The notes under the pieces: model-generated | The model's database searches: none | The model's input: only the letters and a program-made list of their open reading frames with translations | What the model was told of the DNA's origin: nothing | Source: Octopus vulgaris | Lineage: Eukaryota | DNA: 64,000 nt | Reading direction: 5' to 3' | Assembly (NCBI GenBank): GCA_951406725.2 | Contig: OX597817.1 | Location: 103,106,001-103,170,000, forward strand | Translations under genes and position numbers: made by a program | Part shown: piece after piece, positions 1,811 to 61,404 of the stretch | How the letters are laid out: each line of letters starts with the position of its first letter | Position numbering within the stretch: position 1 is the first letter of the stretch

Positions 1811-2993
1811 ATAGACAAGGTGATTCAGAAGTCCCTTTTTCTTTCATATAAAGTAACTGACAGCCAAGCTGAGCATTTTTATGTACATCATTTCTTCCAA
1901 TCTCTTTATCCTACCTCAACTTTCCCCACTCCTCACTACTGTAATCATTTTCATTCTCTCTGCATTCGTTAATTATCCTGATCCCAGTTTTCACATTGAC
2001 TGTCTTGGCTCAGGAATTCCAGTATAGCTGGTTTACTTCTTTGCCATCAATACAGCCTACTGTCTGAACCAGCCTAAACAACTGGGCTAAGATTATTGTA
2101 ATATTGTGTCATTTATACAACAAAGACAATGAATATTCTCTCATCTTTTGATAATGACATTTTTATAAAATATATAAGGCAATATGTGTGAGTGTGTGCA
2201 CATGCACACACACACACACATGCATTTATAGGATTTTATAAGTAAGAAGCTGAAACTGGTATTTAACAAATATATTAATATAACAAACATTTCATATATT
2301 TGATATAGACTTATATAATAAAAATAATTAAATTTTTTATTGAAAATACTTTGGAGGATTGAATCCAAAGAACTTGAAAACTTTACTCTGTTCATTAGTT
2401 CTACAAGTGATAAACAATTATATAAAAAATAAATATAGATAATTTAGCAGAATAGAAAACATAGGCACAACTGCACAGTTGTTATGGCTACCTCAGGTTA
2501 TGAAATTTCATACTTACAGAAATTGCAAAGTATGACCACTAATTTCAAGGTATAGTCTAATTTTACTCTTACAAAATTCAGAAAAATTTCAAGAATTTAA
2601 TAACTACTCTTTCTTCTGAGCCAAAAGATTGCTTCTTGATACTTTCTAAATTGTTAACTACTTTGATCTTAGTTTAACTAAGATCAAAGTAGATAACAAT
2701 TTGGAATATTTCTATGTGTGTGAGTGTGTGTGTGGGGGTATATGTGTAAGCAAGTGTTTGTATATGCATCACTATAAATACCTACAGAATGTGAAGTGGA
2801 ATTTTTTTACTGTGAATATTTTCTTTGGTTGTAGTATCTCTCTGTTTGTCTGCTTCTCTCATGTATGTATGTACATATGTATCTCTTTCTATCTCTCTCT
2901 GGTACCAAAAGGTTTTTGATGTCATTCACGAACTCTCTCACCCTTGTACGAGAGTCACACAGTGCCTGCTGTCATGCAAAATTGTCTGGTACA

Positions 2994-5281: not shown

Positions 5282-6452
5282 CTGCAATATAGTTTCCATG
5301 GAGTCACATAATCGGAAGTCAGCTTCTCTCCACCCATACACTTGTCCTTCTTTTCTTTGAAACATTCTTACCTTTGACAACAAAGCTTTCATCTATTTCT
5401 GTCATGACAACCTCCCATTTTATATCACAAGTTTACTTTATCTCATGTGCTGACAGGCCTCTCGCTATTTTACTCTATCGATTTTATTGAACCCCAGTTA
5501 TACTTATATTTCCAGCCCTATTTCTACTGAACAAATGATACCAATCTTTCATTCTCTTTCATTTTCTGCCAAAATTCTAGGCTCTTTTCACCAAACAACC
5601 TTTTGTTTTCTTAAAATCTTAAAAGGAGGAGGAGGAGGAATTATTAGTGCATTTTTATAGTTAAAAGTTGTGTTATTTAATTCAAGGATTACATTGGATC
5701 GAGAAGATGTGAAGATGTATGACCTTCCAGCTATGGCCATCTCTTCTTTTTTCAGACAATGTATCCAGGATTACATTATCCAATGTGTTCATTATTTTAA
5801 GATGGCAGAGTGTTGTTCGCGGGGAAGATTTGTCTTATTTTGGGCAGGTCGCGCAACGGCATAATAGCGCCTTCGTTGCCTCGCTTAATAGTGTTCAATG
5901 GATAATATATAGTTACTTTCCCTAAAATTAGTGTAGTTATTAACAAATGTTTTGTTTTGTGCAGGAGATTTTGTAAAATAATGATCATGGATCCTCCGTT
6001 ACTTTCAACGACGAACATGTAGTTGTTCGATCAACAGATGTGTAGCGGGAATATTCAGCAATCGTTAAATTAACGTTCTGTAAGTAGCCGAGTAGTCCAA
6101 AGACATGTATTCTTAATATAATTCTGATAGAATTATGATTCAGTGTGTGACAAGGCTTCACCTTTCGGTTTCACTGTATCCGATGAACTACCATATAATT
6201 TTTGCTGACCCCATTTTCCTGTGAAGGTCGGATCGAATTGAAGCACTAGTAAAAATCATTTGATACGAAGTAAGGATTGAACTTGAGATCTCATGATCGC
6301 GAAGCTAGTTTCTAGACGCCACTGGCGTGCTCGTGTCAACTTCCAAAAGTAGAGAGTCAGAAAAGTTTTAAATCATAAGATAAATAAAATGTAATACAAC
6401 TTATGTATTTAATATTTCTAGAATACGAGCTACAGAAATAACGCGAAAACTT

Positions 6453-7259
6453 TTAATAAATAAATGAAAAATCAACCAAAGCAACGTGATTAAATTCTTT
6501 TCTGCTGTATCTCGTGTATACTGACCTATATATGTATGGAGAAGCGACTTTTAATAATTTCAACATTCGACGATGAACAATTTTTAATTCGTATTCCCTT
6601 CCAGTATACGGTGTTAAAATAGACAAGTCAGAGATCCATTCAACAGTGAGTCTCAAAGCTACTAATCCTGTGTAAAGAGCAGCTGTTGCTATAAGACTCG
6701 GTCTAAACCTATTTGTTACACAAATATCCGCATCGTATTGCGCTAGCTCCAGTATATAACGTGACATCCAGGTCAGATTGTGATGACGTTCCAAACGGAG
6801 AATAAAAATGAAGCTCATTAGAAAATTATACGGTGTTATTAAATACGTTTTGTAGTGGAATCGATTCATAATATGACTAAACATGTCATAAAGATCCTTT
6901 TCACTAGAGTGAGGGTCTGTGACCGATACCATATCCAGAAAATTTTCCAGTTTATCCTGGTCTTGAGATAACTGAGTAAAAGCAATCCAAAGACATGAGG
7001 CTCCGAGACATTGCAGCTTAGAGGAAGTAATTAGTTTTGTGTCTTTTCCAGACATGTATATATCAAAATAAGAAACTGCAAGATAAAAGACTTCGAAAGA
7101 AACTACATAATGATCTACACAAGCTACCATCCAGTCGATCACTGCCGCACGATCTTCTGCAGTAAATGATTGGTTTTCCAAATAATTCCTTACTTTTTTC
7201 TGCTGCTGTTCTCGTTCATAAAACCCACTTAAATTATTCATAACATCTTTCCACGACAT
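6453..7259 (-). CDS. Intronless, divergent A/B-type cyclin (cyclin B3-like; cyclin N- and C-boxes only), 268 aa
   Basis: DRAAVIDW resembles MRAILVDW; FEVFYLAVSYFDIYM; KLQCLGASCLWIA; SRYILEL; FRPSLIATAAL; C-terminal RSVYTRYSRKEFNHVA resembles the cyclin B3/B KAVYxKYSxxxFxxVA. The ORF is open with an upstream in-frame TAG and no earlier ATG. ATTAAA polyA-signal variant at 6408-6413. Confidence 0.88.
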   Translation of the reverse strand: MSWKDVMNNLSGFYEREQQQKKVRNYLENQSFTAEDRAAVIDWMVACVDHYVVSFEVFYLAVSYFDIYMSGKDTKLITSSKLQCLGASCLWIAFTQLSQDQDKLENFLDMVSVTDPHSSEKDLYDMFSHIMNRFHYKTYLITPYNFLMSFIFILRLERHHNLTWMSRYILELAQYDADICVTNRFRPSLIATAALYTGLVALRLTVEWISDLSILTPYTGREYELKIVHRRMLKLLKVASPYIYRSVYTRYSRKEFNHVALVDFSFIY

Positions 7260-7914
7260 GATTATCCTTGAGAAATTTGACGAAACTTCTGGCCTGTTTT
7301 GTGACGTTAAATGGGGAAAAACTATATTCCAATTTCTTATGACATACTTCTAATTATGACATATTATTGCGTAATTATCGAATAACTAGCATACCTGTCT
7401 CGTCAAAAATGCCGAGAGGGTTATTAATGAAAGAAAAGGGCATTATGATAATAAGAGAAACCATTTATAAATGTCAGCAATCGAGTATATGAATATATAC
7501 AGAATTAAAGCGCTTGAAGAATTAGATTCGGTTGTAACGTCTCGATAGAAAATAACGGCCACAGAGAACACAATTGAAAAAATTAAAAGAAAAAAAGAAA
7601 GAAAAAAGAAAAAAACCAAAACAATTCACCACCTTGGGTTGAAAAGTTGGGGTGCTGGGAAACCTCTTTAATTGCTATTGAGACACGCCAGCACGCCTGC
7701 AGCATTGCTGCGGGTGATGGCGAGGCTTGATGCGCTGGAACAGCCAAGCGCCCTCACGAGCCTCATCAGTTACCTCTGCAAGGCGAGTTGCAAGTGAAGA
7801 CAGGAATCTCGCAGTTAGTGCTCTGACCCCACCAAACGTCTCGAAGGCCACAGATGAGGAATTATGTACATAATTTACAATTGACGGATATTTGTCCTCA
7901 TCTTGTTTGTTGTT

Positions 7915-18777: not shown

Positions 18778-20115
18778 TTGATGATCTGATGCAGTACCAG
18801 GGAGTAGTTCTCATGGCTTCTCAATTTAACTGATTGGAAGTATTATCATGTACATTGTATTCCACTCAATACCACAGATTATACTCATTTTACCAACTCA
18901 TTAACCTCAATAATAAGCTGAGTACATTTTTCAGTATTGATTAGAATACACACATTCACATAATTCCTCTAGAAAGAATGTTTTTATTTGAAACATGAAT
19001 AGATATTCAGCTTCCTCATTAATACAGATGAGATAATACTACTAAAGAAAAACAGATTTTAAACAAATAATACCAATTAGAATGACAATTTTTTAGTATG
19101 GTGTACATGTTTGTACTTTAAATAGCCTGAGAGATATAACAGCAGAGTGATTATACTATGATATCAACTCATTTTACTTTTATTTTGTCTAAATTGCATG
19201 CCTTACTTCCCTTGCAATAGTCCATCAAAATGAAAATTGGGCACTGATTCTATTTCACATCATCATCATCATCTTCATTTTGATGTTCACTTTTCCATAC
19301 TTGCATGGATTAGATAAATTTTTACTGCAGAAAATTTTTCTACAGCTGGATACTCTACCTGTTGCTAACCCTAACTTAAATCCAAGTGAGGTAATACCTT
19401 TCTTTGTTCTTCAAATAATGAAGAGTTCAATAGCTGGACATGCTTTTGTGAAAATTGTATTACACTAACTTTTGCTTACAATTAGCACACTCATATCAGC
19501 ACAGGAGGAAACACGTACATTCATCCACATCCAAAAAACACATATAAATTTATAAATATAGGATGGGATTCCTCTAGTTTCTCTACCAAATTTCATTCAC
19601 AAAGCATTGGTTAACCTGTGGCTAGAATAGATGTCAGCCAGCAGTGTACATGCAGTGGGAATGAACCATAAACCATGTGATTCTGAAGCAAACTTTTTAA
19701 CCATATGGCCATAGCTGTACTTCATTGAATAAAATTGTTTCTAATTTAGGCACTATTCTAAAGAGGCAGTTAACTGATGCCATTGACCTCAGTATTTGAT
19801 CAGTGAATAAAATAAAAAATTAAAAATATTTACTTCAAAATTTTGTGGAAGTATTTGAATTTATGGACACTATAAAAAAAATGAAATATCACAGAACATA
19901 TATGAGTATATCTGAAAAAGTAGCACTAATAACTGAAACACTTAAAAGTTAAAAGTCAAAGCAAACGATATAGTATACGACAAAGATAGTGGTATCTTTA
20001 ATTTATATCACATTTAAGAGATTTCAAAAATCTCTGAAAACCATTTACCATTACCAAATCTCATGATACTATCATTTTTCTTACATCTTTATTGTTAGAA
20101 CAGTAACAACAGTTT

Positions 20116-21059
20116 TTATTTTCTTTTTCCCACTGATTTGGAAATTACTTTAGATTTTGAAGCTGAAAGAGGAATTGCATCCATGGAATGTGATAGATAT
20201 TTTTGGTAAAAAATTTCTTCATCTTCACGATTTTTCTTTTGTTTCAAACAAAGTCTATATTCCTCACAAAGACTTTTTTGAATCACAAACTGCAATTTTT
20301 GGGAGACTTTTTTGCATTGTTTTTCTACACCTTTTTGTTTAGTATTTGCAACATGATGTTCCTTTTTTGGTTTCTCCTTCTTTGCAAAACGTTCCAGGAA
20401 AGATAACTCTGCCTTTTCAGCATTTTTCTTCCAGTTCATAAGACAATGCTCTTTTTTCAGAGCTTGTATTAATTCATTATGCTTACCACCACTTTTAACT
20501 AGTTTTGTATCAGTGTCTCCATGATGACAATCAGTTTTCTTCATACTGTTATTACGCTTCATTTTCACATCTTTACTGTCATTCACATTTACTTTATTAC
20601 TGTGATCTTTTACTTTTTGTTTTTGCTTCGTAGCATTATTTATATTTGTCTTATTCAGTTTATTTATGGAATTTAAGGTAATTATTTTGTATAAACCTTC
20701 TTTCAACTCACACTCACTCTTAGATTTCAAAACAGAAAACTCATTAGCCAGACTGTAATAAAGCAATCTGTTCTTGTTTATTTTATTATCATTGCCTATC
20801 TTTTGATTGTATTTACTATTGTTGTTTGTTACGTCACTATGTTTGCAATCCTGAGCATTTTCTTTTTCATTCTGGAGCTCATTAGAATTAATATTATTGA
20901 ATGAATTAGATGTAGTTTTATCGTTTTCCCCTTGTTTATTCAAAAATGTATAATATATTGCTTCAGCTGAAATCTGAGAAAATTTCATTTGCAAAACCTT
21001 ACTTTCTTCTTTCAAAGCAATATATAAATCTTGTTTCCTTTCTCCTATCATGATGATAC
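20116..21059 (-). CDS. Terminal coding exon of an unknown K/N-rich protein (open for more than 311 codons)
   Basis: Long ORF in very AT-rich DNA; strong acceptor ttattttctag at 21060-21070 (phase 1); the paralog at 1-220 retains the same frame. No recognisable domain. Confidence 0.6.
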
Positions 21060-38492: not shown

Positions 38493-41400
38493 CTGTGTGT
38501 CTGTGTTTGCTTCTCACTACCACTTGACAACTGGTGTTGGCATGTTCATGTCCCTGTAACTTAGGGGTTTGGCAAAAGAGACCGATAGACTAAACAAACC
38601 TAAAAGGAAAAAATAATAAGTACTGTCGTCGATTCATTTGACTAAAATTTCTTCAAGGCAATGCTCCAGCATGGCTGCAGTCTAATGTCTAAAGCAAGTA
38701 AAAGATAGAAGATAAATGCAGAAGTTGGAGAGGGGTGAGGCATAATAGGGATGATGATGAAATTTGAGATGAGGGCAGTGGATGGTCTTGGACAAGTTCA
38801 AAGATACCATGATGTCATCATGGAAGATGATATCAACAATGAGTTGATATAGATTTCCTCAATGCAGGACGACAGGTATTTGAACAGTGGAGTTGTTCAA
38901 AATGTGGAAGAGACAAAAGACTAATTTTGAAGAATACCTCATAAACACTAGGTATTGATGTTTTTGCTTTTGGTGAATGTGATTAAGATAGCATTTTTTT
39001 TTTATCTGTGTTCAGTTTCATTTATGGTGAGCCAAAATGTGATCAGATAAAAATACTCCCTCACAGAACTTTGTTGCTGCTAACATGGTGTAGGTGCATT
39101 ACACCTCTTGACAGCAGGTAAAGAAGCTGGCTATACAGATATAGAAAGTGTTACACATTAAGGTTCAGACACGTGACCTCATTTCTTCCTTTTTTTCTGC
39201 ACTGACATGCAAGCTATGAGAATGTAACTTGACTGGCTCTATCTTATGCCACAGGCCAGCTTGCAGAAGACCATGGCCTTTACACACCAACCATTTTATT
39301 TATCATTCCATATATGTGTGGCCACAATAAACGTGTTTAAAGTTACAACCTTGCTTGTATATGTTTTACATCTGTCTTTACTACCAGAGAGATTACAGCC
39401 TTCTGAGAGTCATATTAGGTGGCTCAATGACGACTTACAACATCTAAAATGGTGACCCGACGTGAACACAGACTTCTAAAATGGTGAACACCTGCAGAAT
39501 ACAGACTAGTGAATATGTATTCCCTTTTCTCCTTCGTGACTTTGGCTATGCAACCAAATTGCCTCTCGTCATATAGGAACACCACTGTCTTGTCACCATA
39601 TTGTCTTCTTCACCAGGAAAATTTTGGTGCTATTTTCAAGCGGGAAACTGCAAATCATTTTTCCTTGGGTTGTAACTCAATTTACAACTTGGTCATTTGA
39701 AGACACGGCATTACAGAGAATTTTGTTCTTGTTTATAATTTGTTCCTTATCAAATGGCAAGGATTTCTTCTATTTTCATCCTCTGCTATTGAAGAAAAAT
39801 CTTCCTAGTTTGCTGCTCGTCATGTCTTCTTTCAACAAGGGTGTTTTGATTGCTATTTCTAATGGTGTTTCTTCAACCAGCTTGTTCTTCGTGCTGTTCC
39901 CTTTCTATTATCATCCAAGATGAGTCATTTTCCTTTGCTTCAATATCATGGAGATACTAATATATAGTTTTCACAACTGGAATCGTTCTTCATTTCTTCT
40001 AACATTCAGTTGGCCCAGAGCAAACTCCACATCATTCTTGCTGGCATTCCTTCTCCCCTTGCACTTGCAGTGCGAGATATGATAACAGAAATGCCATCGG
40101 ATATGACCTGCGAAACCTTCAAAGCTGAGGTTCTCCAGTGTAACTCTCCCTCGCTTGAGAGTAAATTTCGCACACTCTTGCATCTCAGGGACCGCCCCCT
40201 CCCAGTTTTTGTGATGAATCCAAGAGTTGTCTGATAGCTAATATGAGGGATGACTATTTTTCTTGAGGATGCCTTCTAATGTCCAGTCGATTTTAGCTCC
40301 TATGATAGAACACAAGGCCTTTGAACCAACTTGCCACCTCCGCAGACAAGATTATGGAATTTTCTAGCTCACCATCCTCTGCAGATAACCTTGTCGCTTC
40401 TTCATCTTCCTCTTGAGATTCTACTTCTGCTCCAGTTGACATCTTGCGGGTTATAGCAGAACTGACCCATCAGGTTTCATGCATGTGTAGGAACTATTCG
40501 TCTTCAAGGGATCATTCCGCAGGAAGGACCAGGTGCCGTTCCTTCTTGCGCATACATGCACTTCCTGTTCCCTCAGTCTGCTGGTACCGCAGTAAGTTCA
40601 AGGACCAGGTCTAGAAATGTACACAGCCCTGCTCTTACTCTTCTCAGGGAAATTAGACAGGGAGACACTGGACACATCAGGCGTCTCCCCCATCAATTGA
40701 CCCTATCATGCATTCTTTATAAGAGACGCCAATTCTTCAAAGTCCTTTATAGTGGATATGGGTGCCAGCTTAAGTAGACCTCAACGGTTTACCTCCACCA
40801 CTCCTGGTCTTTCTGATATCCCTCTCTATGCAGTGAATCACTCCGCTGTCAAGACCTATGGACTAATATCCCTCACCCTAGATTTGTCACTCTGTAGGGA
40901 TTTCAAGTGGATCTTTGTCATTGCAGACTTGTTCTATCCTATTCTTGGTTATGGATGATTATACACTCATCTTTCTAGTGGCCATCATCATCAGCATATA
41001 ATGTTTATTTTCTATGCTGGCATGGGTTGGACAGTTTAACAGGAGCTGGGGAGCTAAAGAGCTGCACCAGTCTCCATTGTCAGTTTTGGCATGGTTTCTA
41101 TGGCTGGATGCCTTTCCTAATGCCAACTATTTTACAGAGTGCATTGTGTACTTTTTATGTGGCAACAACACCTGAAGAATCACCAAGTAACTTGCAAGAC
41201 AAAGACACCTGACTTGGAAGGGGAATAGTATTGAAGGAGGTGACTTTGTGCCAGGTGAGAGCTTCAAATATAATAGAGTTATAGAAATAGGTGTTTTGCT
41301 ATAGAGAAGATATTTGGTTACTCCAAATATCAGGATAAAATGCTCAAACAAATGATGGACTGATGTACATATTGCAGAGAAACAAAGGAAAGCATGCTTT

Positions 41401-47400: not shown

Positions 47401-50400
47401 GTTTAACTCTTACTACAACCTAAGTAATGGAGCAATTTATTAGTTCCAACAAATGACACATTGAATTTTAGGATACTTAGAAGAAATAACATTATCTTCT
47501 TATAGTAATTAGAGGACACTCCTTTAGTGTTTGCATTTCTTGTGTTGCTTTATAGGGGGCATGGACAACTTTTTTTGAAAGGTGGACCGAATGAGACAAG
47601 GTTTATCATCAGGTGGGCTACACTACTAGAAAACAAAAATTTAACCCTTTAGCATTCATATTTCTTTGTCAAATGTATTGCTTATTTATTCACATTGTTT
47701 TGAATTAATCCTGTATTATCTCATAGCTTTGAGATTTTGATGATGTAATTGTTTATTTTTAGACTGACGTTGTCTGCTAAGTGTGAGAGGATGGATATGG
47801 CCAGTTTGAACATAAAACAAGTAGAATATTTGGGCCAGATAGGGCCAGTTTGAATGCTAAAGGGTTAAGGTAAATTTTTTGTTAGATGTGCTATTTAGAA
47901 AATCCTGTGGACCACAGTTTGCCTATGACTGCTCTACACTACTGATAACTGGCCAGTGAATGTTGGCAGAACAAACTGTTTGTAATACTTTTACCATGAT
48001 GAAGGTGCTGGTTGAATCGATAGCACATCAGGTAAAATGTTTAGTGGCATTTTGTCTGTCTTTATGTTCTGAGGTCAAATTCCACTGAGGTCGACTTTGC
48101 CATTCATCCTTTTGAGTTTAATGAAATAAGTACCAGTTGAGTGCTGGGGTTGATGTAATCAACCTATCCCCTCTCCCAAAATTACTGGCCTTAGGCCAAG
48201 ATTTGAAATCAATATGTATACCATGATGTGATGGCTCTTCCCAACAGAATTCTCAACTATAAAGCTTTTGTTAGAGTTAATATGAGGCCACATACATCTG
48301 AAAATAGCATTGGTCATCTATGAAGAAACCTCATTCATTTGTTAAGAGGCCTCACTCATATGTTTAGAAACCTTGCACATCAGTTAATGAATTTGTTACT
48401 TAAAATAATTCAGATTCTATTTTCTGCAAAGATTGCAAAATAAATGTTCAATAGACTACTTTTTCAACTTTGATGTTTGATTGACAACCTGGAATGAAGA
48501 AGAAAATAACAATGGTTACAGTTACAGCAAATTGACTTTAATAATGTCCAACTCTCATACATAAGAAGCTATTATGGATAGATAATTTTGGAATAGTAAT
48601 AATATGTAATGTCTTTGGGAGCTATTTAGACACTAGAAATTGAGTATATTTTATTTGTTCGAAGGAAATAATTTAGACTTGACAATTATATAATTATTAG
48701 AAACTGGAAGTGAACAGCTTCCTGAAAAAAGACAAGAGGGTATAATACTTAGAATTGATTAAAACAAATGACCTATAATAACCATTGATTTTTTTTTTTA
48801 TTATAGCCACAACCAGTCCATTGTCGAATGTTGAAAATGGAGATGACTGATGGGACAACTGTAGTTCATGGTATTGAATACAAAAGCATTCCGTCTCTCA
48901 ATGTTAATATAAATCCTGGTTTTAAGGTTGGTATAACTGATTTTGTAAGAGAGAGAAGGATTGTTTAGTTTTATCTTGCTGACTTAATATTCATCATCAT
49001 CATCCTCATCATGGGCTGGATAGTGTCATAGGAGATGTGGAGCCAGAGGACTGTGTCAAGCTCTGCCGTCCGCTTTAGCATGGTTTCAACAGCTGAATGC
49101 TCTTTCTAATACCAGCCACTTTACAGAGTGGACTGGGTGCTTTTTACATGGCACCAGCACCAGTGAAGTCCATCAAGTAACTTGCAAGACAAGACCCCTC
49201 AACAAAGTCGAGAGTAGTATTGTGTGGGAAGTGTCTATATTGTCAGGTGATGAGAGTTTAAAGTATGATAGAGGGAGAGGAATATTGCATAAATAATTCA
49301 AGTTGTGTCTATTAAATAATCTAAAAACTTGATGGGTCAAACAACAGAATATAGAAAATAAAATATAAGTTTTTAGTTGTATGATTTTAGATCTATTATT
49401 TTCTTTATTATTATCTCTTTACTTTCATCTTCATGGTATTGAAGAAAGTTGATGCTTTTTGAATGAATTCTTAGAGGTAATATCACATATTCTTGAAACC
49501 AAATTTTTGTCTCTAGCAAAGTAGAAAGAAAAAGTAAGTAGTTTGCTAAAGAATCAAATCACACTATTTTAATTATAACATTACTACAATGTTATAAAGG
49601 AAAAGAATAATTATGTGATCGAGCATTCTATCAGTTTTATATTAATTTTTCCATCACTGCATATATTCAGTGGGTCTGTAGTACAGCATATTCCTATATG
49701 TCTCTATCTTACTTTCTTACTTCAGAGAGTCTTAATGTTCTCAAGCCTAGCTTAACTGTTTCTTTCAAATTCCTTTATATTGTTCCCAGGTTAGCTCTGA
49801 CTGAGCTGACCTTTATGAAAGGTATTCCACCTATAACTACTGTATTTGCTAGTGTATAAACTGCACCCATGGTTTTTGGTCCCCAATGAGGGAAAAACGT
49901 GGGGGAAACCAGGAAATAACTAGGGCTAATCATTGATATTCATAATTATTAAGGGAAGAAGATAAAGTCCAGGTTTTAAATGCGAGAGATAATAAGAGAA
50001 TGTCTTTTTATTACATATGTTTATATGATTTATATTGTGCTCTTTATATTTTTTCTTGAAAATGTGTGGTCCTAAAAACTTTCTTTGTGTGCCCAGTCTT
50101 TGTCATCTCCTTTGCTGCATTGGCCATCCAATCCTTCCATCGGTGCTTGTGATGGTCCTTAAACGGTTTATTAATTGCAACATCATAGGGTTGAAGAAGA
50201 GATGTCATTCCCATTGGGATCATTGCCATGTCGATGTTCAGACAATATATCTTCGCCTTGGTTTCTTCTGACTTGTGGCATCTAAATGCATCCAGAACCA
50301 GGAGAATCCTTCTCTGATGCAGTCCACTGATGTGCTGCCCCCATGCTACTCAAAGCCAGTTCTTAATGAATGCCTGGTCCATCCAGCCTTTTGCTTCACC

Positions 50401-53400
50401 TCGAATGATGACCCCTTCCAGAAACTTGGCGTCTTTGGGTAGTGTCTCCCTCTTGTAGATGACGTACAGTGGTAGCTTTCCTCCGTCAGCCATGCAAGCA
50501 AGCATCACTGTAAAACGGTCCTTCTCATGACCCATCACGATGATTTTTCACTGTCTTCTCCCCCTTCTCAGCAACAGTTCTCGCCATCGGAATATTGAAG
50601 TGAGGGGAGTCTGGTCTGTATTGTCGATGTGGCTGCACGGCTTCCAAACTCCTCAGCAAACCTGGAAACTGAGAACTTGAAGGCAGCTGTGAATGCTCGT
50701 CTCAGCATGATGACTTTAACTTGAAGAGCGAAGTAGGTAAGTTGTCTGGAACTTGAGGCGGAGTAGACGAGTTAGACGACTAATTATGGTCCAAACAATA
50801 GGATGTAGCTTGAAAGCTTCCTTTGATCATTACCATTTTCTTTACGTATTTATGTAGATATATTACAAAAAGCAAACAAACCAATGCACTTATGAGTACT
50901 TTAAGGTATGGTAATGAAATTCCAGTTGACTTGATTTGTATTCCTTTGTAGCATTGGTGATGACAATGAAATTTACCTTTCCTAGTTCAAGATGTTTCTG
51001 AATAAATGCACTTATCTCCCCTTATATGAAATAAGTTTTCATATTCCATTTTAATTTACTTATTACCTAGTAAATACATTTCATCAATCACATTCAAGTA
51101 TAAATCACAGCCCCCCTCTCTCTCTCTCATTTCCCTATGCGGCGAGATAAGTTATACATCCAGATCACCAAACGATAGTTGTTTATGTCGTAGACCTGGG
51201 GACTACTGATCTTGTAGGTAATTCGCGGTAAATCAGAGAGTAAGTGGAAATTATGATCAGCTATCAATCATAGTGCATTTGTCAGACAAAAGTTAAGTCT
51301 TTACAGAAATTCTCACTACTTTTCTACCAGCACATGTCCCTCTGCTACAGGGCTGCAGCACCATCGAAGCGGAGGCTGCAAGTGAGATGACAACAGTGCA
51401 CATTGGCTTGAAATGCGTAATGTTATAAGAGCATATGACAGACAAAAATAGACAATATTTAAACAGCGTTTTTTTACTAGTTTTAACGGCAAGAATTGTA
51501 AAGGGAGCTAGTACTACATGAATCTTGGATAATTACATGAAATAATGTTCTGGTTTTAGACTGACTTTTCTTTGTACCCGTGTATAAACTGCACCCCACT
51601 TTTCTTGGATTTTCCTGTTGGAAAAAAAGTATGGTTAATACATTGGCAAATACAGTACCTCATGTGTTTTATATCTAAAACTGCATTGTCTAAAGTGTCC
51701 ATCCTTTTCTGAGACAGAAAAGTGTGAATTGAGAGATACTTGACTACTATTTGTAGCAGGTCAGTTGACTAATAGATCCTTCCTCATTGACTTAAACTTC
51801 TTTTGTTTGTCTCATTAATGGATATCTTCTGTTATTTCAAGGAACTCTCACCTTGATTGTCTCATTCCTTTGGCTCAAATCCAAATCAAGAATAATCTAT
51901 CTCTCTATATATAAACGGCAGTTTGTCTGTGTGTGTTTCTGTGTGTCTGTTAGGTTGTACCCTCACCCTGACCACGGCTTTCAACCAATTCTGATGAAAC
52001 TTGACACACACATAGCCCAATGTCATAATTCAAAACTAACACAGCGAAAATTTTGAAAAGTTCCCCCAGTTCTGAAAAAAATCGATAAATTCGACATGGG
52101 GTCGAGAATCAGAAACACAAACCACAGACTGTCTAGGGGACGCAACTCGACCTTTTTAACTAAAAAAAAATTTACCATAATTTTTTTTTCCATTTTTTGG
52201 CTATAACTCTCTAAAACTGCTTTATAGTTATTTCCCTTACAAACCCGAGCAACGCCGGGCGATACTGCTAGTATATATATAAAAGGGAGATCCTGTCTGA
52301 TTGTACCACAAAGTGAAACAAAAACTAGACACCATCCCTCTATAATTTTCTTTGTATGTCTCCTCTATTCTGTCTCCACCTCTATATTCTCTGTCTGGCT
52401 GCCTGTCTGTCTCTTTGTCCTGCAAAGTGAAACTAAAACTCTGCCATGCTACTTCAAAGAGATTCTGTCTCTGTTTGTCCTGTAAAGTGAAAATAAGACC
52501 AGACACTATCTCTTTGATTTTCTTTCTTCTTTATCTGTCTGTTTTCCCTCTCTTTTTTCTCTCTCTCTTCCTTTCTCCCTTTCTTATTACACATAGAGTA
52601 ATAATAAATGGAACAGACGCAAAACAGGTACAAAGGTTCAAGGCCACTCTGATATTAAGTTTTGAACAACAATTGGTAGATCCTGACCAAAATGAATGCT
52701 TTCACCTCAGAATGCTTCTTCATGTAAAAAGAGGACCAACTTCATGGGAAAGTTTGAAATAAGTTGATAGCGAGATTTACAGAACGTATCGTGAAATGTG
52801 TTTCAAGTTAGGTTTGCTTGCAAGTCATCAGTAATGGGAAGCTACATTAGAATGAGCTTCAATATCAAAAACACCTAAGACTTTAAGATGTCTTTTTGCT
52901 ATTATTCTCAAAAATTGTCAAGTAAGTAATTCTGTTCAACTCTGTTCAGAAATGATTTTGCTGAAGATTTCAAGCACCAACTTCAGTTCAATAATCCTGA
53001 GCAAGATATTGGTTTCACGGATGTGATATACAATGTGGTTTTGATTGAAATAGAAGATCAAATTATTTCCATGGGAGGAGAACCTATACAAAATTTAGGT
53101 CTTCCACTAACTAATAGAGGGGATCTTAACACTCTCTCCACTGAAATAATGAGAGAAATTTCCTAAGATAATGATGAACTGACCATGTACGTAAATGATA
53201 ATCTTCCCAAGCTTCTATCTGATCAATGTCATGCATATTCCACTGTCATAGAAAGTATTAACAATAACACAGGAGGACTTAATTTCTTAGATGCTTCAGG
53301 AGGTACTGGGAAAACATTTGTTATTAAACTCAGCCTGGCTAAAGTTTGGCAAAAATGTAATATAGCTTTAGCTACTGCTATTTCTGGGATTGTAGCAATG

Positions 53401-56400
53401 TTACTACCCGGAGGTCAGACTGCTCATTCAACATTCAAGTAACCTTTAGAATTATCTAACAAACAAGATCCAATTTTAATATATCTAAAAATTCTGCAAT
53501 GGGTGAATTAGTACAAAGATGTTACTTAACTGTTTGGGACAAATGTACCATGGCCCACAAAAAAGCTTTTGAAGCTGTTGACAAAATATTACCAGACATT
53601 AGACATTGCAATCCCATGATGGGAAATGTCACAGTATTATTGTCAGGAGACTTCCAACAAACACTACCAGTTATTCCAAGAGGAATAAAAGTGAATGAGC
53701 TCAATGCTTTAATAAAGTTTTCTGTATTATGGCATAATGTGAAAACACTTCAACTTTCAACAAATATGAGATCGAGGCTTTCAAGACATCAATCAGCTGA
53801 ACTATTTTCATGTAATGAACAAACAGAACTTTGTGTATAAAAATGATTTTTTTCTACCTTAATTTTATTACATGTTTTTCTCTTTTAAAAGTATTATATC
53901 ATTGCCATTACTGTATAGATAAATAAAATAACTCATAGAACTTACTTATAATTGCCATATCATAAACAAACACAAGTTCATGTATGATATTGATCTTTCT
54001 TCTACTTCAATTATTACATGGTTTTCTCTTCTAAAAATACACACATTCAGGAGGAGTAAATTATACATATAATAATACTTTCAATGTGGCTCCCGATAAA
54101 CAGTAAAAGTAATTACCCGATCAACGACGGGTTTTACTGCTAGTAAATATAATAAAACTAATGTAAATCTTTGAAGACTACAAAACATTGAATGTTTAAA
54201 AGAATGTGTTAAAACCTGTTTTTACAACAAGTTTGAATACTAATGACTAAAATTACCTATTGTAGTTAATTTTTACTGTTATGTTAACTATGGAATGGTT
54301 GTGTAAATTTGAGGTTTATCTTTGTTCTGTATCTTTCAGGTATTAATGAAAGGTAAAATTTTGTGTCGAAATGGTGTTTTGATGTTGAGCAATGAAAACA
54401 TAAGTGTACTTGGTGGAGAAGTAGATTCTTTAATAGAATCTAATGCTCAACTTCTCTTAATACCCAAAGTTATGTAAGTGTTACCCAACATTGTTGAATC
54501 TTATAAATACAATTTTTACTTTGATTTTTTTAATTCTTTATCTTTACAATTCATTGGTTGTTCATTCCTTTTAGGTTTCTGTTATTGTTTTTCTTATAAA
54601 ATTCAATGAGAAGCTAAAGTTTTCAGACTCTTCTAAACATTTGCTCAATAACTGATAGTCATCTAAAATCACAACTATTATTATGTTCTATACATAGACT
54701 GGAAATGGTACTTTATGTTGGATTAATGTGAAAACATTAATGACTATTGGATATAACTATCTAAACATTAGTATTTGGATAGTATAAGGTGGCAAGCTGG
54801 CAGACTCATAAGCATGCAAAATTCTTAGCATTTTTTTGATGTTACATTCTGAATTAAAATTCTACTGAAGTCAACTTTACTTTTCATCCTTTTGTGGTTG
54901 ATAAAATAAGTACCAGTTGTACTGGGTTTGATGTGAAATGACTTAACCCCCTCTGCTGAAGTTGCTGGCCTTGTGCCAAAATTTAAAATCAATATTGAAT
55001 AGAAATTAGCTGGGATATTTTGAAAATATCACATGGAATGATGACTGTGCCCTGCATAGTTATGGGTTACTCTTTAGCAAGACATAGCACCAGTTCAATC
55101 ACCCTGCCAGAGATATGTCAAAGCCATGGGGCTGCAACATGGTGGATTGTGAAAAGGCAGCAAAAGAGCTCAACAGAGTTGACAGTGCTTCTTATATTGA
55201 TGTTGAAGGGAGGAATCATAGAAGATCAATGGGCAGAATTTCTATCGAAAGTAACTGCAACACACACATAAGGGTGGAGTCCATGGTTGTGTAATCAGCT
55301 AATGAACTTATTTTTGAAAAATAAAGTAATTACTTCTCATATATAAAAAAATATATATACAGGGTGTGATGGGTAAATTGTCGGTATTTTATATTTTTAA
55401 TTTTGTGCATGCACATTGTTTGTTTTTGATTTTGATGACTACATATGTAGGACCTTCTCTGATCAGTTGAATAGTGCTTTATTTTCATTTTTAGGAAGGA
55501 AGTTGCATTGTTTGCTGGAAAGGACATGAGAAAAGATTTTGTAGATAGTGACAACAATAACAAGAATATATCTAACAGAAAGATGAAAGAACTCCATACT
55601 TCTAATGTCCAAAATAAGAAGCATGTTTATTCAGGTAAGTCTGTTGTTGGTCTGCTAAAATATCTTTTACTTATTTACCTAAATATTCTATAATTAATTA
55701 TGAGGTGGGAGTGCTAAGCAGTGATGTGTATAAATGCAATGCTATTTATTACTAGTTTGAATATGCCAGTGGCAAGTTCAAATTTGTAAACAAGGCATTC
55801 ATTGTGCTTTGTCATGGAGAATATTTCTCACTGTAAATACACTTAAATCAGCTCGCAGCATCACCTATTGGTGCTGTAACCTGATTTAGGTGCATTTATA
55901 CCATTTGTCTACAGCGAAAAAATTTTCTCCATGACTTAACACAGTGAATGGCTTGTTTACAAATTTGAACTTGCCACTGGCATATTTGAACTGGTAATAA
56001 CATTAATCTATAATTAATTTTCCATAACACTTTCCTGGCTTAACATGTCATTTTAATTATTTACTTAGACTCATCATATGACCAAGCCTGTATTCAGAAA
56101 AAATCAAGGTAAGATTTTCTGAAGAGTTACTTCCTAAAATTATGTTTTTTTATGTACTGATTTTTGAAATCTAGGAAGTTTCGTTAATTTTCTGAAATTG
56201 TTTGGATTGCAAATCATCCTAGAATATAGATTCATGTTTCAGGTTTTCTTTTTCCAAGTTTAAAGGCTTTTAAACTTCTGGTCTTTATGTTTAAATAAAT
56301 ACTGAAAAATTAGACCATATTGGTGATAATCTTAATAAACTGTGTAAATATTGAGAATACTATTTAAATTTTTGTGTTGTAGTAATTCTTAACAACTTAG

Positions 56401-59400: not shown

Positions 59401-61404
59401 AGGAATACGTTTTTAATTTGAAAAATATTAATATAAGTATAAAGAAAACTTCTTCAAACAATTTTATTAATATTCAAAACATCTTTCATTTTATTCCATT
59501 TTTCTTATTTTAATTTCAATTCTTTGTAAACTTTCTATTTTATTTTTTAAAGAAAAAGACTTACGATCCAAGTTATATTAATAAAAGTACTTTTTCCAGA
59601 TTAAATTAGAAATATTTTGTTTGAAAAGACCAAATATGTATTTTTTCTATTTTAGTGGGATGATCTTGATTTTATGCAAGAACTTGATGAAAATGCTGAC
59701 TTAAATATTCCAAAGAAATCAAATGAAAAACCAGTTTCACAGCCAAGCGAAATTTCCCACTTTGAGGAAAATTGGGATGAAGATGAAATGGAAGTTGCTA
59801 TGTTAAATGACATTGAATTTGAAAATGAAACGAAACCACAAAATTCTGACATTCACTCTTCTACATCCATGGCTCCATCAGTAACGCATGATGAAATAAG
59901 TACTTCTAGGTTAAAAGCACATCAAAAACCCACTTCTTCAGTAACATCTAAATATAACAAGCAGTTATCTACTCTTGATATAAACTCAAACAAAAAGAAG
60001 TCTGATGCTAGTCAGTTTGAATCCTACAATGATTCTTCAACATCCACTTCTAATAGCATAGAGCATTTAATGAACAAATGGACAAAACTGAGCACTCAAA
60101 GTCATATTCAGTCAAACATATTTCCTTGTCTTTCAAAAGGTAGGTGTTTAATAATTATTTGAATTATTTTATAAGGTATTTTTTTCATGTAATAATCAAA
60201 TAATCACATTAGAAAAAATTTTGATGATTATTCTAAGTCAGATTAGTTTTGTAATTGCAATATATATTTATTTAATACATGCAGGGATCTTGTAAAATGG
60301 AAACACAGAGTGAAATGATTTGATGCAGGTATTTGGATGTTGGTTTGGCATGGATGACTCGACATTCCACCTGTTTTGGTGCTGGAGGCAAACATGTGTG
60401 CGTGCGTGCACACACATACACACATACACACACACACGTTTGTTAATGCAGAAATATACACAGGCAGAGAGACACACACACATATTAAAATGTCTGATGT
60501 AAAATAAGTCAGCATTGAATCAGCAAATAAATGATGCCAAAATGGCTGTGCCAGAACATCTAATACCCCCCAAAATATTTACTAAATGTTGAGGAAGTTC
60601 ATGTAATTTGTTTAGTAGTGACAGTAGAAAGAAAAGCATGATAGTAGTTGTGAAATATGAATTTAGTGGTGCACCAAAATCAATCTATGGAAAATGAGAT
60701 TTGAGCTGCCTGAGTACAAAATTGGAAATGAGTTATAAAAAGTAGTGCTCCATGGCCTTAACTGTAATAGCTAAAATGAATTAAAGCTAAACAAGAAGTG
60801 AAATAGATTAAAGTCATATTTACAAAATTTATAGATTATTGAGCAATAAAACAGTATACCTGCTATTGATTTAAAATACGCATATAACATTATAAATTTA
60901 ATGTACAATATGTGGACTTATATAATCCAGCGGTAATCATGAAAAGGCTCTTTTAGTGGATCCAGCTACATACCACATAGTAAACACTACATAGGAATGT
61001 ACTGTTCAGTCCTCTGCAGTTGAAATCCAGTAAATCCAATCTGTGAAAATTATTTTGTGATGAGTGTATAAAATATAAAGGAAATCAGAAGGCATGAGCT
61101 GAATATATTTATTTCACCAGTTGATGTTCATAGGATATCCACTACGTCTAATGTGGACTTTTGTAACTAGTGTTTGAATATAAGAGAAATGTTGGTGATA
61201 TAGAAATATTTACTGATTGAAAATTCCTTGAATTCTTTATTGTAAATTTTATATTCTTGAATTATTAACGAACCTTTTTACTAAAACAGTATTGTAATCC
61301 TTTCCACAATATTTTCAGTTGATGTCCATAAAATTCCATTCACTTACCTATTTCTATTGAAAGCTTACAACTTACAAGCAGAATCAATTAAATTTTACAT
61401 TAAG
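37335..61404 (+). CDS. RMI1: RMI1, RecQ-mediated genome instability protein 1 (BTR dissolvasome subunit); 11 coding exons in window, 3'-partial
   Basis: join(37335-37430,41960-42106,45615-45725,48807-48926,54340-54473,55495-55634,56069-56108,57410-57465,57850-57899,59656-60139,61319-61404) = 1464 nt, open and all GT-AG. Motifs VPMEWLDACIDW, VYEQWLAADL, GFYCLQVNNIIDIS, RMLKMEMTDG..GIEY, NPGFK, RNGVLML..VLGGEVDSL, and C-terminal PFTYL. Confidence 0.93.
37892..38408. mobile_element. Fold-back HHR element inserted in a family-B SINE in RMI1 intron 1
   Basis: Inverted arms of about 180-230 bp; HHR relics at 37908-37964(-) and 38330-38391(+). Confidence 0.75.
38330..38391 (+). ncRNA. Hammerhead ribozyme relic (G12>A)
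   Basis: AGAGT-CTGATGA-gttgtctataa...ttatggatgc-AAAA-ccacaag-TC-ACTCT. The minus-arm copy keeps GAAA-CCATTGG-TC. Confidence 0.65.
39072..40958 (+). mobile_element. Gypsy remnant: 5' LTR, tRNA-Trp-like PBS, degenerate gag and protease
   Basis: LTR TGTTG...CAACA (39072-39442); PBS TGGTGACCCGACGTGA (39450-39465); gag LAVRDMI..FKAEVL; zinc knuckle CWYRSKF..KCTQPC; protease FIVDMGASLS...WIFVIADLFYPILG. Confidence 0.85.
41960..42106 (+). CDS. RMI1: RMI1 coding exon 2
   Basis: cag|GSTLSADQLKSLVYEQWLAADLTELGSQCLPQQTATSNKFFLSGFYCLQ|gt. Confidence 0.92.
43087..43395. mobile_element. Shorter fold-back of the 7855-8292 HHR family
   Basis: TSD AAGGCTAGTGTG at 43075-43086 and 43396-43407; HHRs at 43171-43216(-) and 43306-43351(+). 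Confidence 0.85.
43595..44438 (-). mobile_element. Mariner transposon, internally deleted
   Basis: TA then CGAGGTGGTATCAAAAAGTTCC, with a degenerate inverse at the right end; KSMLIAFFDICGIV and PQGQIVNQEIYCNVLKCLR. Confidence 0.85.
45234..45453. mobile_element. piggyBac-type MITE
   Basis: TTAA-CCCTTTC...GAAAAGG-TTAA. Confidence 0.65.
45615..45725 (+). CDS. RMI1: RMI1 coding exon 3
   Basis: cag|VNNIIDISTSYYTQHSKLKGTDSSNSLISAENPKQYT|gtaaat. Confidence 0.9.
47645..47864. mobile_element. piggyBac-type MITE, probably nested in an older hAT-like MITE (about 47553-47932)
   Basis: TTAA-CCCTTTAGCATTC...GAATGCTAAAGGG-TTAA. Confidence 0.8.
48807..48926 (+). CDS. RMI1: RMI1 coding exon 4 (OB1 fold)
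   Basis: tag|PQPVHCRMLKMEMTDGTTVVHGIEYKSIPSLNVNINPGFK|gt. Confidence 0.93.
49840..51655 (-). mobile_element. pogo/Tigger-type DNA transposon with degenerate DDE transposase
   Basis: TA-CTGTATTTGC...GCAAATACAG-TA; GHEKDRFTVMLACMADGGKLP..KGWMD, LDAFRCH, GMTSLLQPYDVAINKPFK. Confidence 0.9.
51896..52271 (+). mobile_element. Non-autonomous Helitron (same 3' end as the 14991 copy)
   Basis: 5' TC; 3' CCCGAGCAACGCCGGG hairpin then CTAG|T. Confidence 0.85.
52272..54143 (+). mobile_element. Helitron with degenerate RepHel (PIF1-like helicase)
   Basis: LRMLLHVKRGPTSWESLK, FLDASGGTGKTF, ISGIVAMLLPGGQTAHSTFK, LLSGDFQQTLPVIP, LSTNMR; 3' hairpin then CTAG|T at 54140-54143. Confidence 0.9.
54340..54473 (+). 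CDS. RMI1: RMI1 coding exon 5
   Basis: cag|VLMKGKILCRNGVLMLSNENISVLGGEVDSLIESNAQLLLIPKV|gtaagt. Confidence 0.93.
55495..55634 (+). CDS. RMI1: RMI1 coding exon 6
   Basis: ttttag|..KEVALFAGKDMRKDF...KKHVYS|gtaagt; phase 2 to 1. Confidence 0.82.
55746..56000. mobile_element. Hairpin MITE with about 95-bp inverted arms in RMI1 intron 6
   Basis: atatgccagtggcaagttcaaatttgtaaacaag pairs with cttgtttacaaatttgaacttgccactggcatat. Confidence 0.85.
56069..56108 (+). CDS. RMI1: RMI1 coding exon 7 (40 nt)
   Basis: cttag|DSSYDQACIQKKS|gtaaga; phase 1 to 2. Confidence 0.72.
57410..57465 (+). CDS. RMI1: RMI1 coding exon 8 (56 nt)
   Basis: ttttacag|RLYKDTSEETFDPHYNNMK|gtaata; phase 2 to 1. Confidence 0.75.
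57850..57899 (+). CDS. RMI1: RMI1 coding exon 9 (50 nt)
   Basis: ttttacag|DNATKMSTNLIDEFADE|gtatac; phase 1 to 0. Confidence 0.75.
58401..58620 (+). mobile_element. Family-A SINE with TSD, CpG-depleted
   Basis: aatatttt(t)atgagaaca flanks both ends. Confidence 0.8.
59656..60139 (+). CDS. RMI1: RMI1 coding exon 10 (acidic, Ser-rich linker)
   Basis: ttttag|WDDLDFMQELDEN...ENWDEDEMEVAMLNDIEF...FPCLSK|gtaggt; phase 0 to 1. Confidence 0.85.
61319..61404 (+). CDS. RMI1: RMI1 coding exon 11 (start of C-terminal OB fold)
   Basis: ttttcag|VDVHKIPFTYLFLLKAYNLQAESIKFYIK|gtaagg resembles the vertebrate PPFVYLS...VKVK segment. Confidence 0.85.

Follow-up and report, generated by a model that had tools for sequence, protein, structure and literature searches.

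A family of intronless octopod pseudo-cyclins without the CDK-binding Lys-Glu pair, probably derived from cyclin A

The stretch of DNA analyzed here (the window) consists of 64,000 nucleotides of the Octopus vulgaris genome, contig OX597817.1, positions 103,106,001 to 103,170,000. On its reverse strand lies a gene that we call a pseudo-cyclin (Table 1). Above the Pfam cut-offs, its protein carries a Cyclin_N and a Cyclin_C domain only, with no F-box or other extra domain found; the score against PF00134 is 62.5 bits for a cut-off of 23, so that by domain content it has a cyclin box. A sequence-only reading of this DNA had described an intact frame of 268 amino acids without an N-terminal destruction box, and we confirm it. 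There is no stop or frameshift, and an in-frame stop lies 31 codons 5′ of the ATG with no in-frame ATG between. The protein begins at the equivalent of cyclin A2 residue 173, and the N-terminal degron region (D-box/KEN) is absent. Neither KEN nor RxxLxxxN occurs in the protein, and its bare RxxL matches (residues 24, 167, 186, and 230) are all inside the folded span.

The best solved relative of the pseudo-cyclin is cyclin A2 (49 bits; cyclins B1, E1, and D1 score 38, 36, and 33). An AlphaFold model based on a 131-sequence alignment reaches a pLDDT of 94, a value that depends on the many canonical cyclins in that alignment; a family-only model has a pLDDT of 47 and was left aside. The first model superposes on cyclin A2 173-430 with Z of 32 and rmsd of 2.1 Å, and predicts that this whole span, N-terminal helix included, is retained. 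Because cyclin B1 also scores Z of 30.9 against the same model, the fold leaves the ancestry undecided.

Table 1. Features of the pseudo-cyclin locus, in window coordinates; residue names such as K266 are those of cyclin A2 unless stated otherwise.
Feature	Position	Strand	Basis or remark
Pseudo-cyclin ORF	6453..7259	-	268 aa, one coding exon; ORF list and translation
First cyclin fold, Cyclin_N (residues 13-137)	6849..7223	-	Pfam, E 4e-17
Second cyclin fold, Cyclin_C (residues 141-262)	6474..6839	-	Pfam, E 4e-13
Docking-groove helix DRAAVIDWMVAC (cyclin A2 M210-V221)	7119..7154	-	R211, W217 invariant
Q83 of the protein (cyclin A2 Q254, RXL backbone contact)	7011..7013	-	invariant in 18/18
AFTQLS, site of the missing K266	6966..6983	-	family aligned with a 2-residue gap at S265-K266
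F127 of the protein, at the E295 position	6879..6881	-	alignment
Y136 of the protein, at the F304 position	6852..6854	-	varies in the family: Y, H, I, G, F
5′ UTR (likely)	7260..7335	-	X4 and X8 contigs, no joint; holds TGACGT 7302-7307 and the proposed acceptor 7267
3′ UTR (likely), ~780 nt	5668..6452	-	ATTAAA 5676-5681 beside contig ends 5668 (X4) and 5677 (X12)
Alternative last exon	2337..2400	-	database models P0003, P0008; GT donor 6525, AG acceptor 2401-2402
Core promoter (likely)	7337..7392	-	TTATGACATA twice (7337, 7354) and ATTGCGTAAT (7366-7375)

The gene is not alone. Searches with Cyclin_N and Cyclin_C find at least six intronless pseudo-cyclin copies in the genome, the window gene among them: four in tandem on C4, 96-129 kb off on the opposite strand and 42-43% identical to it, one of which carries a TAG stop, and one further copy on C25, 48% identical. 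Relatives in the databases come from O. vulgaris, O. sinensis, O. bimaculoides, and Argonauta hians. The search for orthologs and paralogs in other cephalopods that the sequence-only reading had proposed thus succeeds in two other Octopus species and in Argonauta. The O. bimaculoides ortholog (P0002) is 86% identical and that of A. hians (P0004) 58%, both with 268 aa; another relative, P0012, has 265 aa and is 39% identical. In a search of 1.84 billion representatives, five proteins fall below E 1e-30, a 111-aa fragment follows at 2.5e-30, and the next match is an ordinary cyclin at E 2e-21. The ESM Atlas returned generic cyclin clusters only.

All 18 aligned members share the position of the start Met. 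The family alignment has 38 invariant columns, many of them in the second fold, and the stretch E17-x-x-Q20-K21-x4-Y26 is invariant as well. Three subfamilies are each retained in more than one species. The databases name these proteins 'cyclin-B2-1-like', 'G2/mitotic-specific cyclin-A', or 'uncharacterized', labels that the present assignment corrects, and some of their models are truncated or spliced.

Eight sequencing runs were mapped onto the window; they are RNA-like by presumption or unlabelled, and none is recorded as RNA. In five of them single contigs cover the gene (X3 6068-7199, X4 5668-7312, X8 5815-7335, X11 5766-7204, and X12 5677-7223), with almost no cover of its unique flanks. 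X1 and X2 give short low-depth pieces at the gene, and the genome-sized run X9 covers 30 of 30 bins. For runs that are RNA-like by presumption, the contig pattern fits an unspliced transcript of ~1.7 kb that ends near the ATTAAA at 5676-5681. An AATAAA/ATTAAA hexamer is also found at or directly past the stop codon in six of six copies (window 6450-6457, and L002-L006 elsewhere in the genome). Despite that hexamer, the contigs of the window copy extend ~780 nt further.

Is there an upstream exon? An acceptor near 7267 had been suggested as a way to find one. We reject an upstream coding exon at 7267 for the contigs seen, as X4 and X8 run through it without a joint, and the unspliced cover of ~5670-7335 by RNA-like contigs argues against it. 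The description of the gene as intronless stands for these contigs. It does not stand for two database models, P0003 and P0008, which splice the last 23 codons away from 6525 to the exon at 2337-2400; that exon has a depth of 0-0.35 in X4, X11, and X12, and no supporting joint among the joints listed. There may be a 5′ UTR intron or a minor isoform at the window gene, because the X1 contig begins at 7265, those of X3, X11, and X12 end at 7199-7223, and the tandem copies have an acceptor-like stretch. In those tandem paralogs (L003-L006) we see a branch-point-like CTAAAC and an acceptor-like TTTCGCAG 10 nt before the ATG, and a 5′ UTR intron is possible there. No expression values for individual cyclin genes are given in the supplements of PMC11202624 and PMC6341066.

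Upstream of the gene, the sequence-only reading had reported four bZIP-like sites. All four are where they were said to be, but the TGACGT at 7302 is at chance level and inside the stretch covered by RNA-like contigs. This hexamer is seen 13 times in the window against 10.6 expected; it turns up in 1.5-3% of background windows of 130 nt, and of 10 other intronless frames checked, one has it upstream. The other two motifs, TTATGACATA (2 seen vs. 0.44 expected) and ATTGCGTAAT (1 seen vs. 0.12 expected), are each weak alone. The site at 7366-7375 aligns with a TACGTCAT/GACGTAAT element found upstream of five of five paralogs, as TACGTCAT on C25 and as GACGT/CAAT in all four tandem copies, ~100-130 nt before the ATG. 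The paralogs likely share a conserved promoter element, and this sharing indicates that they go back to one origin and were then duplicated at the DNA level.

In canonical cyclins, a Lys-Glu pair hydrogen-bonds the CDK loop before PSTAIRE (PMC3590450, in the part available), and the accessible text of PMC6971155 proposes that the pair is what defines a cyclin, cyclin F being the exception. Our alignment places DRAAV, AFTQLS, and YDMF of the window protein opposite MRAIL, ASKFEE, and LRME of cyclin A2, as the sequence-only reading had them, and its claim that Lys and Glu are near-invariant in CDK-activating cyclins and lost here is borne out. In alignment A3, all 115 canonical cyclins have Lys in the K266 column, where the 16 family members all show a gap; the E295 column has Glu in all 115 and in 0 of 16. 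None of the 16 family members thus has the pair by which the available part of PMC6971155 defines CDK-activating cyclins. If the K266 position is read without the gap, the family has T, I, D, E, or S there, never Lys. The loss was probably a two-codon deletion that took the neighbor S265 as well, since paralogs read IA--FDTIY where canonical cyclins read IASKFEEIY.

The consequences of such losses have been engineered. According to the accessible part of PMC12356897, changing K266, E295, and F304 to Ala disables CDK binding while RxL docking stays, and cyclin F, which naturally has no equivalents of these three residues, binds no CDK. Because K266 and E295, the grip of cyclins on the CDK, are missing, the pseudo-cyclin is likely kinase-independent. 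Moreover, 16 sites of the CDK face, a set that like the groove set below was chosen in part from general knowledge of the structure, evolve at a relative rate of 1.42 versus 0.99 for the rest (13 members, p=0.001); across 16 animal cyclin As, by contrast, these sites exceed average conservation (0.78 vs. 0.68).

The loss of the pair does not strictly bar CDK activation, since CDKs are also activated by p35 and Speedy, which have no cyclin box (PMC6971155, in the text available). A CDK could still be bound through a rebuilt interface, with an atypical CDK being activated or CDK1/2 being inhibited stoichiometrically. The retained span of cyclin A2 173-430 with its N-terminal helix, the invariant E17-to-Y26 stretch, and the existence of these non-cyclin activators would all agree with it. 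We consider it unlikely, because the CDK-face residues are among the fastest evolving and differ between paralogs, which is unlike an interface shared with so constant a kinase: three well-aligned exon matches of CDK2 show no difference between Argonauta and this genome (58/58, 45/45, and 26/26). Octopus CDK1 and CDK2 retain PSTAIRE. Nor is there a divergent intronless CDK among 30 of the 45 matches (132 of 250 candidates scored). A co-evolved CDK partner is unsupported; the intronless matches are, judging by their motifs, p38-like or other kinases. At G000:C10:83395259-83476866 (L072-L074) there are three intronless ORFs for kinases whose activation loop has TGY. From that motif we take them to be p38-like, and they are likely another retrogene cluster.

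How well is the frame protected? The sequence-only reading held that heavy divergence without a stop suggests selection, and it proposed a dN/dS measurement. Between old copies the ratio is below 1: nine deep paralog pairs at dS 0.8-1.1 have dN/dS of 0.43-0.70, with confidence intervals below 1 in all nine (Nei-Gojobori). The six young tandem pairs range over 0.30-0.91 by the same method, with intervals that reach 1 in five of them (0.66-0.91). Between two Octopus species the claim fares less well, with a dN/dS of ~1.2 (0.6-2.5) for the window gene against an O. bimaculoides-type X3 contig, a figure that assumes that the contig encodes P0002 throughout. In codons 182-268, the contig matches 11 of 11 P0002 amino-acid differences (11 non-synonymous and 5 synonymous changes). 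Over codons 21-268, the comparison of the window gene with P0002/X3 counts 36 or more non-synonymous changes and 9 or fewer synonymous ones, and the 3′ UTR diverges by 4.9% from the X3 contig. Chance alone is an improbable reason for the survival of the frame: of 1000 simulations with 0.2 substitutions/site, one kept it open. On these comparisons, the frame is protected in the long term, yet its sequence appears now to change at a nearly neutral rate, which would reflect either relaxation or a mixture of purifying and positive selection.

Taken to its end, relaxation would make these genes expressed but nearly dispensable retrogenes, in which the decay of the interface is loss of function and the groove is kept for folding. 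The recent ortholog pair, with its dN/dS of ~1 and a lack of stops that is unremarkable (P ~0.13), and the tandem copy with a stop fit that picture, as does the marginal slowing of the groove relative to the rest (p=0.08, below). We find it rather unlikely all the same. The Octopus and Argonauta proteins, 58% identical, have the same length of 268 aa, dN/dS stays below 1 in nine of nine deep pairs, the promoter element is conserved across three old lineages, and three subfamilies survive in more than one species.

If the CDK face has decayed, what remains is the docking groove. Cyclin A2 contacts the RXL motif of p27 through W217 and Q254 (bioRxiv 2021.02.04.429742, in the part available), and its E220 binds the RxL arginine, according to the accessible text of PMC3973122. 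In 18 of 18 family members the equivalents of R211, W217, Q254, and D283 are invariant. In the MRAILxDWxxE patch, M210 and E220 are kept in none of the 18; M210 has become D or N, and E220 has become A or S. The groove is half kept, and these two replacements have probably altered its docking specificity. The 14 groove sites evolve at a relative rate of 0.80 (13 members), slower than the CDK face (p=0.003) and only marginally slower than the rest (0.99; p=0.08), for a set that includes partly buried residues.

An alternative is that conservation marks a new binding surface, for example the invariant second-fold patch of I153, L154, H160, L162, W208-Y218, and Y251. Many of the 38 invariant columns are in the second fold, and the groove itself has lost M210 and E220. 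Set against this, W208, L212, T216, and Y218 are also features of cyclin A, and the patch is defined by sequence invariance. We regard a new surface as distinctly improbable.

Where did the family come from? The sequence-only reading saw a retro-derived B3/B-like cyclin. We read the octopus genes for cyclin A (C7), B (C17), and B3 (C5) exon by exon, and between the exon pieces recovered they have six, five, and five introns over this region, and the family has none. A retro-origin is plausible because octopus cyclins carry these 5-6 introns, so that this part of the claim holds up; no poly(A) tract is seen after the family stop codons, and the event is old. The B3/B ancestry is not supported. 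BLAST ranks cyclin A first for each of the 18 members, and a family HMM scores it at 106 bits versus 73 for B and 67 for B3. Trees were built with 54 rows, 10 of them from the 18-member family, and with 28 rows, 7 of them from the family. In the free trees the family members form a single clade, whose long branch lies outside A, B, and B3. The AU test (28 rows) rejects the family as sister to octopus B (p 0.013) or to octopus B3 (p 0.019), which goes against the proposed placement. The same test does not reject the family grouped with octopus A (p 0.29), or with that gene and the row nearest to it (p 0.34), or as sister to all B3 (p 0.22) or to four animal Bs (p 0.095). Sharing of exact residues with the family is even (A 10, B 12, B3 9) and does not separate the lineages. 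From these comparisons, we consider cyclin A the probable ancestor.

Viral cyclins are short and intronless, so the family could instead be a captured viral cyclin and not the copy of a host mRNA. Apart from this resemblance, the results point the other way. The best viral fold match has E 1e-6 and TM 0.69, versus E 4e-10 and TM 0.80 for cyclin A2; none of 83 pattern matches in viral contigs was confirmed as a relative; and a scan of 90 of the 202 long frames of the window finds no viral domain, only PIF1, DDE_1, and DUF7041. A viral origin is extremely improbable. The transposon-type remnants with those three domains are found at 53167-53837 (PIF1 helicase), 50047-50349 (DDE_1), and 39968-40231 (DUF7041).

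We can put forward a scenario. A single cyclin mRNA, probably that of cyclin A, would have been reverse-transcribed without its 5′ part before the split of Octopus and Argonauta. The retrocopy would have acquired a short bZIP-like promoter and then lost S265-K266 and E295, and copies would have spread by DNA-level duplication, carrying the promoter along. Without a D-box region, the protein would escape the normal APC/C timing. Through its groove it would recognize, with altered specificity, linear motifs in cell-cycle proteins, and these proteins would be held or competed for, not delivered to a kinase. We give about an even chance to the core of this scenario, namely a CDK-independent cyclin fold that meets its partners through a re-tuned groove, as an adaptor or a decoy. 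Expression in testis is a guess by analogy, made because of the type of gene: a retrogene, with fast evolution and birth and death of copies. The full picture of octopod kinase-dead cyclin A retrocopies with a re-tuned groove, under positive selection, as germline decoys or adaptors that reshape docking in the cell cycle, and possibly in genetic conflict, is tentative, and we would sooner doubt it than assert it.

How does the family compare with known systems? Cyclin A, as the A2 fragment 173-432 ('cyclin A3'), has the same span, fold (Z 32), and W217, Q254, D283, and R211. The family differs from it in that K266 and E295 are absent, F304 is variable, M210 is D/N, and E220 is A/S, and also in having no N-terminal degron region, no introns, ~25% identity, many copies, and fast evolution. 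A separate locus on C3, with introns, we take from a motif to be cyclin F. Like the family, cyclin F (FBXO1) is a cyclin fold without the Lys-Glu pair, and it binds RxL motifs without a CDK (PMC6971155 and PMC12356897, in the parts available). Its cyclin domain may be the best model, by analogy, of how the family works; the family itself is not cyclin F, as it has no F-box and no extra domains, and it has lost the acidic residue of the groove. The atypical cyclins (CCNO, CCNP/CNTD2, CCNI, CCNG, CCNY, CNTD1) share a divergent cyclin box, and some act in meiosis or spermatogenesis. According to the accessible text of PMC6971155, which reports both, they all keep Lys-Glu (Arg-Glu in CCNG2) and most have one box, whereas the family has two folds and neither residue. 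The divergent cyclin B duplicates of Daphnia pulex are likewise lineage-specific extra mitotic cyclins with long branches that are hard to place; they are B-type and of unrelated origin, and the part of PMC2680839 available does not mention a loss of Lys-Glu. Finally, the proposed role resembles that of free cyclin B1 in mouse oocytes, which is not CDK-bound and is proposed to be an APC/C decoy in meiosis. That decoy needs a D-box and a PM motif (PMC6416240, in the text available), and the octopus protein has no D-box region.

We found no description of this pseudo-cyclin family in the literature searched, which largely excludes subscription journals. According to the accessible part of PMC6971155, only cyclin F is accepted among animal proteins as having a cyclin fold but no Lys-Glu pair, and it needs its F-box. 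If our reading is true, here is a stand-alone cyclin fold that works with neither a CDK nor an F-box. These old, multi-copy, bare cyclin folds would be the natural counterpart of the CDK-dead cyclin A that docking screens have obtained by engineering, and kinase-independent functions of cyclins would become directly testable.

Other observations concern further intronless frames in the genome and the rest of the window. At G000:C8:72225048-72270113 (L041-L044) there are four near-identical tandem intronless cyclin-like ORFs of ~308 aa that keep both Lys and Glu, and which from their motifs we take to be cyclin T-like. An intronless ORF at G000:C21:32040078-32040398 (L049) is presumably TFIIB-like, by its sequence features. 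In the window, a Ser/Asn-rich open frame of 162 aa at 59674-60162 looks like an exon of another gene and has no Pfam match above cut-off. A 311-aa ORF at 20116-21051 has no Pfam match and a letter-for-letter entry in the ESM Atlas, and positions 1-550 are an inverted, decayed copy of 19100-20560, the region around that ORF.
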